From Mustelus asterias (Eukaryota): a DNA stretch of 64,000 bases. Where the stretch lies: NCBI RefSeq assembly GCF_964213995.1, contig NC_135828.1:16244001-16308000 (forward strand), given 5' to 3'. The position numbers and the translations under genes are program-made. Shown piece by piece: positions 4,392 through 47,534 of this stretch. How positions within the stretch are numbered: the first letter of the stretch is position 1; the number at the start of each line of letters is the position of its first letter. The notes under the pieces were generated by a model that was given only the letters and a program-made list of their open reading frames with translations, ran no database searches and was not told the origin of the DNA.

Positions 4392-4683
4392 TTTTAAAAA
4401 TCAACATTAACCTGGGCCTTTCAGGATTTGTGCTACTAATCCGATTCTCTCAGCATCATGTTATCTCGAGTGAATTCTGAGGTCAAAAGAAGTCTGAAGG
4501 ATGTTAAAAGTTGTTGTAATTTTCTTGCCACTGATCTTTATAAGGATGGCTGATTGTGAAATGAGAAAGAGCTAATCACGCTGAGAAAACCCCAATGGAG
4601 TGTGGGCCTAGCACAGCTCTCCATTAGTACAAGATGCTGGACAATGTGACCCCTGCAGGCCATTGGTTTGAGTGCGTGGGCCC

Positions 4684-5646
4684 TTTAATTTTTTTAAATA
4701 CTTTTCCAATTCAATCAAATCAAATCCAATTCAGAGTCTCAACAAGTTGAGACATTTCAGATCCAGGCTGGCAAGACAAGGTCTACACTCCTGTCTTGGG
4801 CCTGATCTACATGAGCCAAGCTGATTGGAGTAGGTGCAGACTCACCTCCTCCAAAGCTTGATCTCATTTGCATCTTAGCCAAAAGGCCGAGATGCCGCTT
4901 TTAAAAATTGCTTCAAATGAAGCTAAAATGTAACCTAATGACCTCAACCAAGCGCAGCCTGTCCACACTACACTTTTTTAAATACTTTTCCAATTCAATG
5001 AAATCAAGTCCAATTCAGAGTCTCAACAAGTTGAGACATTTCCGATCCAAGCTGACAAGACAGGGTCTGCAACCCAATACCCTGTCTTGGGCCTGATCTA
5101 CATGAGCCAAGCTGATTGGAGGAGGTGCAGGTCTTCCTCCTCCAAGGCTTGATCTCATTTGCATCTTAGCCAAAAGGCCGAGATGCCGCTCTAAAAAATT
5201 GCTTCATATGAAAATGAAGCTTAAATGCAACCTAATGACCTCAACCAAGTGCAGCATCCGATCCACACTACACTTGTTTTTTAAAATTTTTAAAAATACT
5301 TTTCCAATTCAATCAAATCAAATCCAATTCAGAGTCTCAACAAGTTGAGACATTTCAGATCCAGGCTGACAAGACAGGGCGAGCGACCAAACCACCCTGT
5401 CCTGGGCCCGATCTACATGAGCCAAGTTGATTGGAGAAGGGGGAGGTTCCTCCTCCAAGACTTGAGCTCATTTGCATCTTAGCCAAAAGGCCGAGATGCC
5501 GCTTTTAAAAATTGCTTCATATGAAACATATGAAGCTTCAATGTAACCCAATGACCTCAACCAAGTGCAGCATCCCATCCATACTACACCTGATCTTAGC
5601 CAAAAGGTCGAAGCGATCCACACTACACTTGATCCTAGCCAAAGGC
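4684..5646 (-). mobile_element. Nested tandem array of three U2 snRNA-headed, A-tailed structured retroelements (SINEU-like)
   Basis: Units at 4684-4973, 4974-5276 and 5277-5617, plus a head remnant at 5618-5646. 5581-5617 reads ATCGCTTCGACCTTTTGGCTAAGATCAGGTGTAGTAT on the minus strand, matching U2 snRNA nt 1-39 with 3 changes. Each unit ends in an A-rich tail. CCACACTACACTTG is duplicated at 5263-5276 and 5618-5631. Confidence 0.8.
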
Positions 5647-6065
5647 ATGGCTGTCATGCACAGTAACTTATGTGTAGACAGAGCAACAACCTGCAGAACG
5701 AGCACACACCTTACAGGAACATTGACACTGGGGCAAGTTTGGAATTCTGCGATTATAATATAAAACAATAAAACTCATTCACTTCTCTCTTTTTCCAACA
5801 TTATTACTGGGTATTTAAATGATCAATTTGTGGTTTTAATCTGAGCATTGTTTACACACATATGGGTGAATTTTGTAATGGTTGCTGCTGGAGCCTTGGA
5901 ATTCATTGACCAAATAAGAGATAATTACAGGCTTGAGAATGTTTCTACCAGTTCTGGAGCTGGTTATTGATAGTTGCACAATAATCACTACCCCTCAAGC
6001 CCTGCCTCTCTCCCTAACTCACTGAAAATCTACCTTCCTCTGATACCAAAAGGAGGTTCAGGTTC

Positions 6066-12789: not shown

Positions 12790-14010
12790 TTGAGAAAGAT
12801 TGCAGAACTCTGCAGTACAGAGGGGTCTGGGTGTCCCAGTCCATGAGTCATAAGAAGTTAGTATGTAGTTACAGCAATTGATTAGGAAGGCAAATGGAAT
12901 ATTGTTGTTTATTGCAGAGGAATGGAATATTAAAGTAGGGAAGTTTTGCTACAGTTGTATAGGGCATTGGTAAGACCACAGCTGGGGCTTTCCAATCTTG
13001 CCCGCGGCTGGGATTCTCCCATCCCACTGGAGTGAATGGACTTTTGGCTGAGTGCCAAATTCTCCGTTCTCACTGGCGGTGGTTGGGGGCAGGGGGTGGG
13101 GGGGGGGGGGGGGGGAGTGGCGTGACGGCAGAGAATTCTGGCCCACATCTGGAGTACTGTTTGCAGTATTGATCTCCTTACCTGAGTAAGGATATAATTG
13201 CATTAGAAGCCATTCAGAGAAGGTCCACTCGACTGATCCCTGGGATGAAGGGATCAACATATGAGGAAAGGAAAGGCAGATTATGTCCGTGTCCATTGGA
13301 GTTTAGAAGAATAAGAAGTGACCTTTATAGAACAATGTAACATCCTGAGGGGAATTGACAAGGTGGATGCTGAGAGGATGTTTCCCCTTGTGTGGGCGGG
13401 AGGTGCGGGGGGGATACCCTTTGAACATAAGGCTCTCCCATTTCAGAGGGAGATTAGGAGAATCTTTTTCTCTCTGAGGGTCCCTGGTCTGTGGAATTCT
13501 CTTCCCCGGGGAACAGTGGAGGCTGGGCCATTGAATATTTTTGAAGACTGAGTTGGATAGACTCTTGGTTGACAAGGGAGTCAAAAGTAAAAGTACTTTA
13601 AAGTTTATTTATTAGTCACAAGAAGGCTTACGTTAACACTGTAATGAAGTTACTGTGAAAATCCCCAAGTCACCACACTCCGGCACCTGTTCGGGCACAC
13701 TGAGGGAGAATTTAGCATGGCCAATGCACCTAACCAGCACGCCTTTCAGACTGTGGGAGGAAACCAGAGCACCCGGAGGAAACCCACGCAGATACTGGGA
13801 GAACGTGCAGACTCCGCACAGACAGTGACCCAAGCCGGGAATCGAACCAGATCCCTGGCACTTTGAGGCAGCAGTGCTAACCACTGTGCCACCGTGGTAA
13901 GCAGGAAAGTGGAGTTGATACCGAGGTGAGATCAGCCATGCTCTTACCAAATGTTGGAGCAGGCTTGAGGGGCTGAATGGCCTATTTCTGCTCCTAATTG
14001 GTTTGTGTGT
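12790..14010 (+). mobile_element. Degraded CR1 LINE 3' part, interrupted by a MITE-like element (~12984-13144) and a SINE
   Basis: ILRGIDKVDAERMFPLV...REIRRIFFSLRVPGLWNSLP and LYRALVRP..LEYC motifs. Confidence 0.75.
13597..13896 (-). mobile_element. HE1-like SINE, tail type 2
   Basis: Head, body and tail match. Confidence 0.85.
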
Positions 14011-20955: not shown

Positions 20956-22110
20956 ATAGAACATAGAACATAGAACAGTACAGCACAGAACAGGCCCTTC
21001 GGCCCACGATGTTGTGCCGAGCTTTATCTGAAACCAAGATCAAGCTATCCCACTCCCTATCATCCTGGTGTGCTCCATGTGCCTATCCAATAACCGCTTA
21101 AATGTTCCTAAAGTGTCTGACTCCACTATCACTGCAGGCAGTCCATTCCACACCCCAATCACTCTCTGCATAAAGAACCTACCTCTGATACCCTTCCTAT
21201 ATCTCCCACCATGAACCCTATAGTTATGCCCCCTTGTAATAGCTCCATCCACCCGAGGAAATAGTCTTTGAACGTTCACTCTATCTATCCCCTTCATCAT
21301 TTTATAAACCTCTATTAAGTCTCCCCTCAGCCTCCTCCGCTCCAGAGAGAACAGCCCTAGCTCCCTCAACCTTTCCTCATAAGACCTACCCTCCAAACCA
21401 GGCAGCATCCTGGTAAATCTCCTCTGCACTCTTTCCAGCGCTTCCACATCCTTCTTATAGTGAGGTGACCAGAACTGCACGCAATATTCCAAATGCGGTC
21501 TCACCAAGGTCCTGTACAGTTGCAGCATAACCCCACGGCTCTTAAACTCCAAACCCCTGTTCATAAAAGCTAACACACTATAGGCCTTCTTCACAGCTCT
21601 ATCCACTTGAGTGGCAACCTTTAGAGATCTGTGGATATGGACCCCAAGATCTCTCTGTTCCTCCACAGTCTTCAGAACCCTACCTTTGACCCTGTAATCC
21701 ACATTTAAATTAGTCCTACCAAAATGAATCACCTCACATTTATCAGGGTTAAACTCCATTTGCCATTTTTCAGCCCAGCTTTGCATCCTATCTATGTCTC
21801 TTTGCAGCCTACAACAGCCCTCCACCTCATCCACTACTCCACCAATCTTGGTGTCATCAGCAAATTTACTGATCCACCCTTCAGCCCCCTCCTCTAAGTC
21901 ATTAATAAAAATCACAAAGAGCAGAGGACCAAGCACTGATCCCTGTGGCACTCCGCTAGCAACCTGCCTCCAGTCCGAAAATTTTCCATCGACCACCACC
22001 CTCTGTCTTCGATCAGATAGCCAGTTACCTATCCAATCAGCCAACTTTCCCTCTATCCCACACCTCCTTACTTTCATCATAAGCCGACCATGGGGGACCT
22101 TATCAAAGAC
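20956..22110 (-). mobile_element. Young 5'-truncated CR1 LINE with an intact RT C-terminal reading frame
   Basis: Open frame from about FDKVPH (~22110) to the stop at 21040, with SGVPQGSVLGP and KFADDTK motifs; (TTCTATG)n tail at 20956-20977. The first ~58 aa of the listed ORF come from flanking DNA. Confidence 0.92.
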
Positions 22111-22590
22111 CTTATAAAGAGGACCCTCAAAGGAGAAGCTTCCACTCCCCCTTGCCTGACATCGGCCCACCCAGTAACAGTTGCTGGCTTCTTGGCGTGG
22201 GCCTCCCCTTGCCCTAGATAAAATAGCAGTGGGGGCAGGATGAGGCACGTAAGTAGCCATTAAATACCCCCATAAATTGAGAGACAAACTGGGGGTGTGT
22301 GGCCAACTGCATGATGTATTTTACAAAACCACTGGCAGGGGAAGGTAAAAGCCAGCCTTGTTCTTAACCAGGTCCTCAATTCCAGTGGTCAGTTGACTTT
22401 TGGGTTTAACTTGTTCAGTCTGATTGTTGGAATCAAGTTGATGCTGTGGCCTTTTGGTCTGGAGCTTTCTATCCGGAGTGGAAATAATGGAGTGTATTCC
22501 CTTTTTAAACAAAATAAGCCACACAAACATGGAATAGTGTAGTAGTGAGATGGATTCATACTAAAACCTTTGCAAACAGGTTTGCAAAAT

Positions 22591-34080: not shown

Positions 34081-34449
34081 TCGAGAGAGGAGCTCACTGA
34101 TTCTTCTCCCCTCTTGCTTTGACATAAAAGAAAAGTCAGAATCCCCCTGATTTTTGTGAAATAGTCCACAATTGACTCAGAAGCAGGCCTTAAATCCCTT
34201 TGTTGCCCTTCTCCACCCCCACAATACAGACCATAAGACAAAGGACCAGAAGTAGGCCATTTGGCCCATCGAACCTGTTCCAATACAGCTGCTAATCTTT
34301 ATAAAAAGCACACAGCAGGACTGGGCAGTTCACAAAAGGATTAAGCCAGCCTTGTGATGAGAATTTGCAAGGCTTCAGCAGCGCACACCGAACATAATTT
34401 AAAATCTAATGATTGATGAGACACTCTGAGGAGATATTACCTTCTTTCA

Positions 34450-35140
34450 GTCTGTGCGCAATCAGGACCCTGACCTTCCGGTTGCTTGCCATTTTAACAC
34501 ACAATTCTGCTCCTATGCCCCCATGTCTGTCCTTGGCCTGCTGCAATGTTCCAGTGAAGCTCAATCCAAACTCATCTCATCTTCCGGCACTGTACAGCCT
34601 TCCAGTCTCAACATCAAATTCAACAACTTCAGATGATTTGCCCTGCCCCACCTCGGCACCCTTTGTTTTCAATTTTTTTTTTACTGTTCTCTACCTTTTT
34701 ATTTCTTTATGGTCTTTCTTCTTTTTTCTTCTCCAACTCTTTCCTTCTCCCTACTTCATCCCCCTTCCGTTACCTTTTGTCCCCCGCTTCCCCTTTTCTA
34801 CATTCTCCCTCTGTTCCATTCACCCCTTCCCCAACATCTCCATCTGTCACAACTTACAGCTTCTCTGCCGTTTGGCCATTCACACTCTTTATTCTCTGAG
34901 TGGGCAGCTATTAACAGTCTTTTCTCCTGGTTCCTATGGCTATGACTCATCTTTCATTCCCTCCCCCTGTAGTATAAATATCTCCACCTTTCTCTGCCTT
35001 TCAGCTTTGGCAAAGGGTCACCTGGACTCGAAACGTCAGCTTTTTTCTCCCCTCACAGATGCTGCCAGACCTGCTGAGATTTTCCAGCATTTTCTCTTTT
35101 CGTTCCGGATTCCAGCATCCGCAGTAATTTGCTTTTATTA
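34450..35140 (+). mobile_element. Penelope-like element 3' fragment (end of GIY-YIG ORF, pyrimidine-rich UTR, terminal repeat with hammerhead motif)
   Basis: DLPVACHFN...MSVLGLLQCSSEAQ...GTVQPSSLNIKFNNFR* resembles the PLE endonuclease C-terminus; hammerhead-like motif at 35003-35041. Confidence 0.8.
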
Positions 35141-35269
35141 CCTACTTTCGCTTGCCCAACATCTGCCCCTGCCCTCACCCCTACCCCCCCCCCCTCCCCC
35201 GACTCACAGGTTTCACTGAGAAGCACTGATCTTGCCAGCACTATTCCTACTGTTTGGAAATGTACTCAC

Positions 35270-37011: not shown

Positions 37012-37318
37012 TAAGTTTATTTATTAGTGTCACAAGTAGGCTTACATTAACACTGCAATGAAGTTACTGTGAAAATCCCCTAGTTGCCACACTCCGGCGC
37101 CTGTTCAGGTACACTGAGGGAGAATTTAGCACGGCCAATGCACCTAACCAGCATGTCTTTTGGACTATGGGAGGAAACCGGAGCACCCGGAGGAAAGCTA
37201 CGCAGACACGGGGAGAACATGCAAACTCCACATAGACAGTGACCCAAGCTGGGAATCGAACCCGGGTCCCTGGCGCTGTGAGACAGCAGTGTTAACCACT
37301 GTGCCACCCGTGCTGCCC
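37012..37318 (-). mobile_element. HE1-like SINE, tail type 2
   Basis: Head, body and tail match. Confidence 0.85.
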
Positions 37319-37517
37319 TAATTAAGGGGATGAGGGCATTGAGTTTGAGGAAGCCGAGGTTTCAGGGGAAGGGGCCATTGCTATGGCCAGATAAGGCAGG
37401 CATGTGTGTGAGATTCCAGGAGGGGGTGATGAGATGCAGTGAGTACCCTGTTGGACAAGTGCCCTACACCGTGAACCACCTGCTATTCCTCTCATTTCAC
37501 TCACTCAAATCAATATG

Positions 37518-43514: not shown

Positions 43515-44135
43515 CACCTCCAGGGCTGCGGATGGCGCTGTGTGTGGAGCCCGGGTAATGCCTCCAGTACTGCGGGTGGCGCTGTGTCTGGAGTCCGGGA
43601 TCCGGTTTATGCGGAGCTGCGGGTGGCGCTGTGTCTGGAGTCCGGGCAGTACCTCCTGTACTGCAGGAGGTGCTGTTTCGGGAGTCAAGGCAGTACCTCC
43701 AGTGCTGCGGGTGGCGCTGTGTCGGGAGTCAAGGCAGTATCTCCAGTGCTGCGGGTGGCGCTGTGTCAGGAGTCAAGGCAGTACATCCAGTGCTGCGGGT
43801 GGCGCTGTGTCCGGAGTCCGCACAGTACCTCCAGGGCTGCGGGTGGCGCTGTGTCGGGAGTCAAGGCAGTACCTCCAACGCTGCGGGTGGCGCTGTGTCT
43901 GGAGTCAAGGCAGTACCTCCAGGGCTACGGGTGGCGCTGTGTCTGGAGTCCAGGCAATACCTCCAGTGCTGCGGGTGGCGCTGTGTCGGGAGTCAATACA
44001 GTACCTCCAGTGTTGCGGGTGGCGCTGTGTCTGGAGTCCGAACAGTACCTCCAGTGCTGCGGGTGGCGCTGTGTCTGGAGTCCGGGCAGTGCCTCCCAGT
44101 GCTGCGGGTGGCGCTGTGGGTGGAGTCCGGGCTCC
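43515..44135. repeat. GC-rich 44-bp minisatellite, 14 copies
   Basis: Unit approximately GCGGGTGGCGCTGTGTCTGGAGTC(AA/CG)GGCAGTACCTCCAGTGCT; starts at 43528, 43572, 43619, 43663, then every 44 bp to 44059, and 44104. Confidence 0.95.
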
Positions 44136-44970: not shown

Positions 44971-45114
44971 CTATCTGTCTCCCTATCTGTCTCCCTATCT
45001 GTCTCCCTATCTGTCTCCCTATCTGTCTCCCTATCTGTCTCCCTATCTGTCTCCCTATCTGTCTCCCTATCTGTCTCCCTATCTGTCTCCCTATCTGTCT
45101 CCCTATCTGTCTCC
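44971..45114. repeat. Perfect 12-bp tandem repeat (CTATCTGTCTCC)x12
   Basis: Directly visible. Confidence 0.97.
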
Positions 45115-47534
45115 CGTTAGTGTGTGTGGAAATGGCAGCTTTGTTTGTTATTGCTCCAACTGGAAAATAAAATTGATATGGAAATTGTTCATTCAGTAAA
45201 CTTGATCAGAGGTTTATGAATGATGCATGTAAATTAGTGTTTGGGAAGCTTGCTTTCTTTCTATTTGGGTCAGAAGGGCGGTGCCATTCGCAAACGTACT
45301 AAATTACATGATTTCATTTGTGTGTTGCTGTTAATGGGTTTAATTTGGGAAATCCTCAAGAAGATTAAAGATCTGTAACCGATCTGATAAGTAGGCAGAC
45401 CCACTTGCCCGAATAATGAAGTGACCTGAAACCAGAAAGTGAGCTGCAGTCAATCAGTCAGGGGTACATCTGTGGAAGGTGAAGCTACACTGCGCTGAAT
45501 ATTTACTCAATGTGTGGCCACAGTGCCCCATTGGAATGCATCTAAGTGGCCGACAAGGACAAAAAGCCTGAATGCTTTATCGAATGATTAGTTTTATGAA
45601 CATTAGCTGTGGGAAGATTATTTAATTTGGTGCATTCTATATATCTTTGCATTCTGTGGTACCAATCTCTCTCATTGGGGAGGGGGGGGGGGGAAGATTC
45701 AACAGCCCAGGCTTCCCCTGAGACCTGCCAAACTCAGAGAACTGGCTTCATGATTCTTATCCAACTGCAAACTGGCCACGATTCCCAGGCGCTGGAACGG
45801 CGAACAGCCTGATGGACATTTGGCAACAGTGCTTTTCATCAAGTTGCTCAACTGATAATGACCTCATTTTCAGCTTCCTTATTTTGACTCATGGTTTCAA
45901 AGCTTGTGATTTGTAGGTGACCTGCAGACTTTATTCCCTTAATCATCATCCCTCAGTGTGCTATACTGGAATAGTTTTGGCCCGTTGTCACATAAAATGC
46001 AGATCTTTACCCATGCCAACCTGTGGAGAATTTTTACAGCTTTGAAAACTAATATCTAGCACTTCCAGGAGCTGTTCAGCAACCAACCAATCCAACACTG
46101 CTTACAGGAGTCAGTGACCTTAATCACCATCGATAGTTTGGGTAGAATTTTCCAGCCCTGCCCACTGGAATCTTCCAGTCCCGGTGAAGTCAATGGACTC
46201 TTGGCTGGCTTGCCGCAGGATGGAAAATCCTGGCTTTTGCCTTTGGAGGTATGCAGTGAAAGCCCTTTGCCAGCTGGCTAGCTGTAAATCTGAAGTAATA
46301 TAGGCAGCGCCATATTAATAATGAGCCAGTGTGCACGTCTTCAGATATAGCAGATCAGTTAGGAAATTAGTCCACCCCTTCCCCCCCGCCCTCATCACCA
46401 ACCAGAAACTGTCTTCCTGTCTGAGATTGCATCCAGAGATGCGTGTGTAATGTTACATGGATTGCGCAGAAAATAAACGGGGGTTGCACAACACCTACTC
46501 AGTTTAAAGTTTGCAACCCAAAGTAATCAGATGGTGTGAATGAATGAATGTGTGAAGTTTTTCTCACAATTCTAATACTATTACTGGGCATTGCTAAAAG
46601 CAACAGCCATCCTGTCGAATATTCTAGGTTGCTAAAATAGCACCAGTAACTAGAATGGCTATAGTAGCTCCAAATCTTGCTTTATACAACAAATGCATTT
46701 GAACACAAGAAGTCTGTTATGTCACACTTAATTTCTTCCCATTTTCTTATTGTGAAAAATGGGATACGCAGAATATAAATAGGATATTAGATGATTTTTA
46801 CTCAAGTCATAAGGGCTGACGACCAGACTTGGGGGAATTTGCTTGCAGTTATTCGAGTGTAACCTTGAATGGGGACAAAATTATCATTTGCTCCGGAGTG
46901 TTTCTACCCTTGGCTGTGCATGTCCTTGCATCCTATCTCACAGAATTATAGGCCAAGATATGAACATTGAAGTTGTGTGCCATATCATTTCCAAAGATCT
47001 GTCACTGTAACGTGACAGTTCAGCTGATACAGTAGCTACTGGGCAGTAACCTATTAAACCTCCTGACTTAGCACCTGGGAGACATTTTGCGAGAAGTTCA
47101 GATATCCGTCTGTCCTGTGGGTATTTGGGTCGCTTATTGCGAGCAGGAGAGATACGTGTTTGTTTAAGAGGTGAACTGAAAAACAATTAGAGTAAGGTAG
47201 GATCAAGTTTTGCATCAACATTTTAATGCATGTGATGCGATTGATTTTCTATATCCCGAGGCGCAGGAGCTGAATTCCGTGAATCTGATTGTCTTAATCT
47301 GCTGTTTACTTATCTAATTACTATAAATAACAATACGTTACTAAATCTAATTGGTACCTTAGCTGCAATTTAATTGCTGTAAGAATGTGGAGGACTCGAA
47401 GGCAAAGGATTCACATAAATCAAAATTAGTGATTTTTAAAAAAAATTCTCAAATGTGCTCAATGACCCAGATAATGAGCATGTAACGCATACACTGAGAG
47501 TGTGTAGTGAGTGAGGACTCGCATACCGATGTGG

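Follow-up and report, generated by a model that had tools for sequence, protein, structure and literature searches.

The repeated element at 4689–5617 on the minus strand of the analysed window (the whole 64-kb stretch of NC_135828.1) is quite probably a nested array of three separately inserted SINEs derived from U2 snRNA, which share conserved hairpins in the minus-strand RNA and would be transcribed within U2 gene arrays, copied by a Keno-type LINE and equipped with a 5′ helix hiding the branch-point recognition sequence. The family-wide test of this structure, the order of nesting and the U2 ancestry of the hairpins are new here. Read on the minus strand, the full unit consists of U2 snRNA nt 1–38/39, a body of about 280 nt and an A-tail, that is, a noncoding dispersed element of about 310–340 bp. 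Exact matches to an 18-mer from its core number 5,356 in the genome of 3.68 Gb and 0 for the reversed control.

For the analysis of the family we took the 30 loci closest to unit 2, loci spanning 96 of the first 100 listed core matches on chromosome C1 and one copy met by chance; after removal of 4 overlapping loci the sample comprised 117 loci with 149 matches, 130 of them near full length and 115 with recognisable head. In the positional sample from C1 the U2 head is present in 79 of 98 copies and, under an extension rule tolerating single mismatches, it starts at U2 +1 in 18 of these 79 and within +1..+4 in 33, while exact target-site duplications (TSDs) of 8–23 bp were found for 46 of the 98. 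The U2-headed element is a SINE-like retroposon. Flanks of dispersed copies are heterogeneous, and insertion at specific targets was observed for U2 genes and for the head of the element itself. T4–T5 runs are located at nt 15–18, in the AAUUUUU linker (intact in 110 of 114 copies) and in hairpin P2, and such internal oligo-T argues against transcription by Pol III; assignment to Pol III SINEs with tRNA, 7SL or 5S head was rejected on these runs and on the U2 nature of the head. Several features of the family deserve mention on their own. One subfamily has a head ending at U2 nt 35 (GTGTATG...) and a longer loop of the head helix P0 (L003:2939-3262, L056, L106, L127, L129), its nt-35 junction being the one found at the Keno 5′ end. 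Copies in opposite orientation, some of them head to head, occur within a few hundred bases of each other (L003, L009, L017, L105, L117) and could form long double-stranded RNA. In contigs from sequencing runs of other organisms the SINE body is covered piecewise at 80–100% identity in three of four runs and not at all in the fourth; these contigs are relatives in other organisms and not evidence of transcription.

Within the array, unit 1 (4689..4975, minus strand) is the first-inserted copy, made up of body and A-tail (4689–4695), its head having been split by later insertions. Unit 2 (4976..5276, minus) is the second insertion and merges by its 5′ end with the duplicated head motif, while unit 3 (5277..5617, minus), the last insertion, is full length and has its own U2 head. 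This head (5581..5617, minus) corresponds to U2 snRNA nt 1–39 with a 2-nt deletion (blastn to genomic U2, 35/39) and ends at the Keno insertion site; its Rfam match to U2 stays below threshold (E=0.012, 25.2 bits versus gathering score 46), and interpretation of the element as functional U2 snRNA or its variant was rejected on this score and on the absence of 3′ stem-loops in the young family. The remnant of the original head of unit 1 (about nt 12–28, recognised by match to U2) lies at 5631..5646 (minus), upstream of the nested insertions. Each of the three junctions contains a rare head variant, AAGTGTAGTGTGGA (5615–5631, 5260–5276 and 4962–4975), and these copies are nested TSDs, all on the minus strand: copy 1 reads CAAGTGTAGTGTGGATC, copy 2, 17 bp long, belongs to the insertion of unit 3, and copy 3, 14 bp long, to that of unit 2. 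Their positions imply that unit 1 came first, that unit 2 was inserted into the head of unit 1 behind U2 nt 28 and that unit 3 used the same nick. Identities to the best dispersed match, equal to 95.6% for unit 1, 98.0% for unit 2 and 98.5% for unit 3, agree with this order. Identity between units is only 89.8–91.5%, and in the tree of 127 bodies they fall in three clades, each unit standing nearer to a dispersed copy than to its neighbour, in line with the suggestion of the initial annotation that the units are independent insertions and not products of slippage. No outer TSD was found for the three-unit array, the best match being 7 nt long and misplaced.

The same mode of growth is seen elsewhere in the genome. 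The head-internal junction used twice here occurs 26 times, and in 11 of 12 examined cases the neighbours at this junction are less alike than both are in comparison with dispersed copies. Tail-to-head junctions with full head number 383, and in several of them the intervening TSD extends into the downstream head, which means that the new copy arose 5′ of the old one. In 17 of 18 same-locus pairs each member has a dispersed copy closer to it than its partner, and the upstream copy looks younger in only 11 of 17 adjacent pairs. As for annotation of the window by standard tools, the array is absent from the output of Tandem Repeats Finder, Rfam at gathering threshold has no match anywhere in the window, and at E≤10 the region 4500–5900 gives only the sub-threshold U2 and chance miRNA/snoRNA matches. 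Other repeats of the window include abundant tRNA-type SINE families with many copies (e.g., 1824–2455, 13614–13911, 37028–37326), presumably resembling shark HE1-type SINEs, a 44-bp minisatellite with 13.9 copies (43516–44132) and a perfect 12-bp repeat with 12 copies (44971–45115). A 426-aa open frame at 21040–22320 (minus) with an RVT_1 match (E 4.6e-19) is a LINE fragment unrelated to the array, and a 268-aa stop-to-stop frame at 34413–35219 (plus) has no Pfam match.

Five hairpins per unit had been proposed from the letters of the window, and all of them appear at the positions indicated for unit 2 in the minus-strand minimum free energy (MFE) structures of all three units, although the list leaves out a sixth helix, P0, formed by the head and its antisense. 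P1 (5201..5220 in unit 2, 5514–5536 in unit 3, minus) is followed on the RNA by the AAUUUUU linker. P2 (5161..5186 and 5474–5499, minus) is an internal copy of U2 stem-loop I (nt 4–27) brought to 10 pairs by extension, and is overlapped by the ATGCAAAT octamer (5157–5164 in unit 2). P3 (5102..5158 and 5417–5471, minus) and P4 (5044..5098 and 5358–5413, minus) each have a C/UCA bulge. P5 (5020..5037 in unit 2, 5334–5351 in unit 3, 4736–4753 in unit 1, minus) had been described as an invariant GTCTCAAC-AA-GTTGAGAC, and the sequence is indeed the same in the three units, but in such pairing a C-G pair would close a 2-nt loop and the realistic helix has 7 bp with a CUUG loop. P0 of unit 3 spans 5545–5617 (minus). 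Folding of the units is better than that of dinucleotide shuffles (60 each) on both strands, with z of −5.7, −6.5 and −10.1 for minus and −5.9, −4.8 and −5.7 for plus, the minus strand being more stable by 20–44 kcal/mol. Some MFE structures include a seventh helix, in the 3′ tail, which was discarded because a common GAC/GAT variant breaks it.

The strand asymmetry noticed in unit 3, where two quoted substitutions, both read correctly, give G-U pairs on the minus strand and A-C mismatches on the plus strand, turned out to be a property of the whole family. The test was made on 114 copies, one hyper-edited copy being excluded, with polarity taken relative to the majority letter and each variant counted once per column: transitions in Watson-Crick stem pairs observed in at least 3 copies comprise 21 G-U versus 6 A-C on the minus strand, while those observed in 1–2 copies are split 28:30 (Fisher p=0.018), and with a 5-copy cut-off and all 115 copies the values are 12:3 versus 29:28 (p=0.076). 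Thirteen helical segments were mapped on the 115-copy alignment, variants in 1–2 copies serving as a proxy for neutral post-insertion change and those in at least 5 copies as a proxy for change in source lineages. The former are distributed evenly over stems, bulges, loops, linkers and tail (0.64–0.85 per column), whereas the latter amount to 0.15 per column in stems versus 1.08 in apical loops, where counts are inflated by alignment uncertainty, and to 0.10 in the unpaired 3′ tail. This contrast between shared and private variants backs the earlier suggestion that the minus-strand RNA structure was selected in source copies. The accompanying statement that loops differ widely holds for three or four apical loops only: conservation equal to that of stems is shown by the UUUU loop of U2 and the CUUG loop, by the C and UCA bulges (intact in 109/113 and 112/106 of 114 copies), by the AAUUUUU linker and by the 3′ tail. 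Pair counting in 78 copies, chosen from the 115 by leaving out most near-identical top matches and the long-loop subfamily, gave 97.6% of cells paired versus 28–44% in slid controls, a comparison favoured by how the structure was chosen. Covariation across copies, proposed as a check, is weak in its two-sided form, change on both sides being found for 2 of 81 pairs of the young family, a number reached by 497 of 500 shuffles, but one-sided wobble exchange is evident and one P4 pair displays a stepwise G-C/G-U/A-U series (59/38/16 copies). The conservation signal is one-sided wobble exchange together with loop turnover, and not classical covariation.

The sixth helix arises from the fact that the SINE body opens with an imperfect antisense of U2 nt 11–39, located at 5545..5573 (minus) in unit 3, where the helix with the head has 22 pairs, and at 5229..5257 (minus) in unit 2, as judged by sequence and MFE. 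In the upper stem departures from perfect complementarity to the head are G-U wobbles, and variants of the anti-head stay paired. P0 is predicted to replace U2 stem-loop I and to bury the branch-point recognition sequence, nt 25–36 being paired in the modelled SINE fold with the anti-head and not with the partners used in U2 itself. According to PMC13019295, the branch-point stem-loop of U2 includes pairs G25-C45 and C28-G42, and mutations stabilising it lower U2 levels and splicing of a reporter; by analogy a locked head would plausibly be inert. A similar head-folding helix is predicted for the Keno-type LINE.

Origin of the remaining hairpins became traceable owing to an older U2-derived SINE family of about 215 bp, for which 1,757 candidates were obtained, 40 scored and 30 aligned (e.g., L202:1020-1270, minus, and L203–L232). 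Its similarity to U2 1–154 is 61% (E 1.5e-11) and to the 3′ half of the young element 71% (E 5e-13). After the U2 head it has one P4-type hairpin with the same C/UCA bulge replacing the branch-point region, and its downstream parts we take to be the next stem-loop of U2, the Sm-site region and the third stem-loop. The older family is likely the ancestor or a sister of the young 3′ half, and its alignments identify P2 as U2 stem-loop I and derive the P4 3′ strand and P5 from U2 nt 39–84, the former being aligned to nt 39–65 and the latter to nt 68–84, presumably stem-loop IIb. P3 is likely a duplicate of P4 with rewritten inner stem, the direct alignment of the two being not significant (p=0.14). 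Direct comparison of the young 3′ half with U2 is not significant either (p=0.08), so that the assignment of this half as remodelled U2 goes through the older family; on these alignments the module of head, anti-head and P1 appears as an addition in front of the U2-derived 3′ half. The idea of an unrecognised structured RNA, put forward in the initial annotation, is thereby superseded by that of a remodelled U2 snRNA; a scaffold for recognition by reverse transcriptase, the other possibility raised there, is hypothetical. U4 or U1 modules in the consensus were considered too and left unsupported by local alignments (p≥0.14, 500 shuffles).

The candidate partner of the SINE was encountered in the U2 cluster of C24, where an 8,035-bp repeat holds a 5.6-kb LINE with ZCCHC3-type/zf-CCHC ORF1, APE endonuclease and RT domains, the reading frames of this copy being broken and its 3′ junction lying at U2 nt 38. 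Keno is described as an APE-type U2-targeting LINE of the Tx1 clade (PMC4640811, PMC4494074), and by Pfam domains and target site the C24 LINE is assigned to the Keno type. At this locus (L051, C24:44.81-44.94 Mb) at least 16 near-identical 8,035-bp units contain intact U2, U2 fragments and Keno interrupted by a tRNA-type SINE, that is, a Keno insertion amplified along with the U2 array. In nine SINE copies the tail is followed by U2 nt 38, at the nt 37/38 site used by Keno; in three of them the U2 sequence extends for at least 148 nt, and one stands beside Keno in the main array. U2-site copies are few, 9 of more than 5,000, and most SINE insertions are dispersed. Dispersed Keno copies have a U2 1–35 head followed by a segment folding back on it, SINE and Keno are adjacent at several loci and both occur in arrays L151, L170–175 and L183. 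The same SINE-then-Keno junction is found on five small contigs (L170, L171, L173–L175), where it was probably amplified within a larger repeat, and on C1418 U4 snRNA genes (L250/L251) flank a Keno ORF1 match (C1418:82009-82457). No 3′ tail common to SINE and Keno was detected, blastn of the SINE body against the Keno copy gave no match, with only a weak local match to the Keno 5′ UTR (p=0.016), and the SINE anti-head was found as Keno's own 5′ end at 0 of 20 divergent Keno ORF1 loci. The pairing of SINE and Keno consequently rests on target site and head, and common U2 nt 38 target, head and adjacency would fit mobilisation by a Tx1 LINE, the tail not being shared. Derivation of the SINE from Keno by internal deletion was rejected, as it has no ORFs and, beyond the weak 5′ match, its ends are not homologous to Keno UTRs.

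Information on transcription comes from an array of variant U2 genes (L239–L245, C21:28.05-28.08 Mb) with a 448-bp period, 85–90% identity to the main U2 and a different upstream region, which is heavily invaded by Keno and SINE. The junction of the variant-U2 upstream region with +1 has 16 matches: the SINE follows in 9, Keno in 3 and an intact variant U2 in the other 4. At the promoter of the main U2 the corresponding junction has 22 matches, of which 21 belong to intact U2 genes. Four SINE copies retain the upstream spacer over a length of at least 240 nt, and in two insertions variant-U2 upstream DNA (93 nt in L234 and 11 nt in L247/L248, which represent one event) is enclosed within the copy's own TSDs of 16–18 bp, which points to donors in variant-U2 arrays; candidate donor loci are those with variant U2 on C21, C14 and C8, besides the C24 array. 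Such 5′-transduced copies began upstream of +1, implying read-through and not initiation at +1, while the many heads starting at +1 suggest initiation at this point. Transcription of the SINE from donor copies inside U2 gene arrays is, on this evidence, likely. Strong excess of A>G on the sense strand is seen in 3 of 115 copies (27:3, 15:4 and 10:0), and dense changes of this kind mark L132:1329-1645 (minus), L078, L005:1857-2210 (minus) and the 5′ end of the Keno copy L188. Excess of A>G is the expected mark of ADAR editing of an RNA intermediate, and these copies are consistent with hyper-editing fixed by retrotransposition. Their strandedness supports passage through RNA on that strand and at the same time supplies the main rival explanation for the G-U bias.

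That rival assumes a mutational origin of both the bias and the persistence of stems, from ADAR A>G changes written into cDNA and from errors of reverse transcription or repair at hairpin tips. Hyper-edited copies do exist in SINE and Keno, A>G accounts for 11 of the 21 shared G-U variants and apical loops vary by indels, but C>T-type wobble variants, for which editing does not account, are equally enriched (10 versus 3 G>A), private stem variants have no A>G excess (13 versus 9 T>C) and seven shared changes make a G-U into a Watson-Crick pair or keep one. Since, in addition, shared transversions number 11 in 165 stem columns versus 48 in 132 unpaired columns, as opposed to 56 versus 49 for private ones, and the mutational scheme still needs the minus-strand fold to exist, we rate it as rather improbable. 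Less credible yet is the view of the fold as a self-cleaving ribozyme freeing the element from read-through transcripts, as in R2: read-through donors exist and the C/UCA bulges are near invariant, yet the suggested Rfam search matched no ribozyme model at gathering or up to E=10, the helices derive from U2 elements, and the starts of copies do not mark one cleavage position, being located at U2 +1, slightly inside it or upstream of it. Local tandem duplication of one insertion by slippage or unequal crossing-over has the least to commend it; head-to-tail order, the common junction motif and the lack of a detectable outer TSD are what it would produce, but placement of the units in three clades and identities of 95.6–98.5% to dispersed copies versus 90–91.5% between units refute it at this locus.

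Two further alternatives, each unlikely but with more in its favour, concern the head and the promoter. The U2 head could be added anew at every insertion if the anti-head paired in trans with U2 snRNA and reverse transcriptase jumped onto it. Complementarity of the anti-head to U2 nt 11–39 suits this scheme, as do extra U2 pieces (nt 7–58, of varying length) found 5′ of SINE or Keno copies (L114, L182, L234, L246, L247) and recurrent U1/U2 additions described by Kojima 2015 (PMC4494074). Against it, head variants (GTGTGG, GTAGCAT, nt-35 ends) and the head-body junction track subfamilies, as expected for inheritance in cis, and the head is already inside donor-like copies behind U2 upstream DNA. 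The other alternative gives the element its own internal Pol II promoter (the ATGCAAAT octamer, a CCAAT box and the tail), so that dispersed and tandem copies would be sources and conservation would partly operate at DNA level. Of 114 copies, 109 have an intact octamer, shared variants are as scarce in the unpaired tail as in the stems, many subfamilies coexist versus few U2-array donors found, and in the array the octamer stands about 190–205 bp upstream of the next head, which is the spacing of snRNA distal elements. Since the octamer also forms part of the P2 3′ arm and of the start of P3, however, it may be conserved for structural reasons; selection on DNA would not give a strand-specific G-U bias, and 5′-transduced copies trace to variant-U2 arrays.

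Returning to SINE donors residing in U2 arrays, the life cycle may be envisaged as follows. The donors would be transcribed by Pol II from +1 of U2 promoters or by read-through, and the RNA would fold so that its U2 end is masked. Keno ORF1p and ORF2p may then capture it for target-primed reverse transcription at loosely specified nicks, and homology of the cDNA 5′ end to an existing U2 head would favour completion beside or inside heads, giving arrays. Selection would favour the fold as a means of preventing an RNA with U2 head from entering spliceosome assembly and of making it stable or recognisable for Keno proteins; whether masking is the main reason of this selection appears to us an evenly balanced matter, as the model stands. 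A far-reaching version, which we regard as doubtful, supposes that both LINE and SINE evolved a cis-antisense mask locking the U2 5′ end in a hyper-stable helix starting at GAUCA(AG), that the SINE triplicated this helix (P0, P3 and P4, two of them with the fixed C/UCA bulge) as a recognition code for Keno and that its own head serves as landing pad. If true, the SINE would be recognised not by a LINE-derived tail but by RNA structures, 5′ and internal, taken over from the target gene of the host. The predicted head mask, common to SINE and Keno, hints at the way in which a parasite of an essential splicing gene escapes making a dominant-negative U2; the family as such documents, step by step, how an snRNA became a SINE and provides a design of non-autonomous cargo for a site-preferring LINE.

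Among known systems, Keno itself resembles the element in insertion site (3′ flank equal to U2 nt 38 onward), U2 5′ head on dispersed copies and antisense segment after the head, while the SINE lacks ORFs and the Keno 3′ UTR and matches its 5′ UTR only weakly. With U2 snRNA and its retropseudogenes it shares the head (U2 1–38), internal stem-loop I and, via the older family, colinearity of the P4 3′ strand, P5 and tail, but the internal copy has another sequence in place of the branch-point recognition sequence, which in the head is predicted to be buried, and the 3′ stem-loops are lost; unlike retropseudogenes, thousands of copies form subfamilies with shared diagnostic changes. Non-autonomous elements of R2 are known as SIDE. 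R2 and SIDE are also promoter-less, are co-transcribed with the target RNA gene (for R2, as cited in PMC4494074) and have host-gene sequence in the 5′ structure; here, no HDV-like ribozyme is present, the host is a Pol II snRNA gene versus rDNA and copies are mostly dispersed. The literature searched holds no U2-headed SINE of cartilaginous fish, nor do passages of PMC13034634 and PMC5381603; Repbase, Dfam and subscription papers lay outside its scope and may have such an element catalogued. The closest counterparts are SINEU-1, -2 and -3 of crocodilians, snRNA-headed SINEs moved by a Keno-related Tx1 LINE, which the main text of PMC4494074 reports only from crocodilians, leaving their transcription open. 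The structural definition of SINEU applies to our element, which has a head of the kind required, derived from U1 or U2 and here from U2, length below 500 bp, no coding capacity, 3′ poly(A), TSDs and high dispersed copy number. The likeness covers the U2-derived head, poly(A) tail, TSDs, size under 500 bp, oligo-T excluding Pol III, repeated 5′ addition of parts of snRNAs, tandem copies with a TSD between them, probably also mobilisation by a Keno-related Tx1 LINE with common target and snRNA head, and, in SINEU-3, rearranged U2 (PMC4494074). Host and target differ: the SINEU target is Mariner-N4_AMi and here it is U2 genes, in what appears to be a shark, and the same main text describes no antisense head-masking helix or conserved RNA fold (PMC4494074). 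In the present element, moreover, the likely partner is Keno itself at U2 nt 38, the donors are located in U2 arrays and neither U1 nor U4 pieces were detected. It works, in the model favoured here, like crocodilian SINEU and is probably of separate origin. As far as the searched literature goes, snRNA-headed SINEs are hereby extended beyond crocodilians, and donor loci in U2 arrays with their 5′-transduced offspring make the question of their transcription testable.
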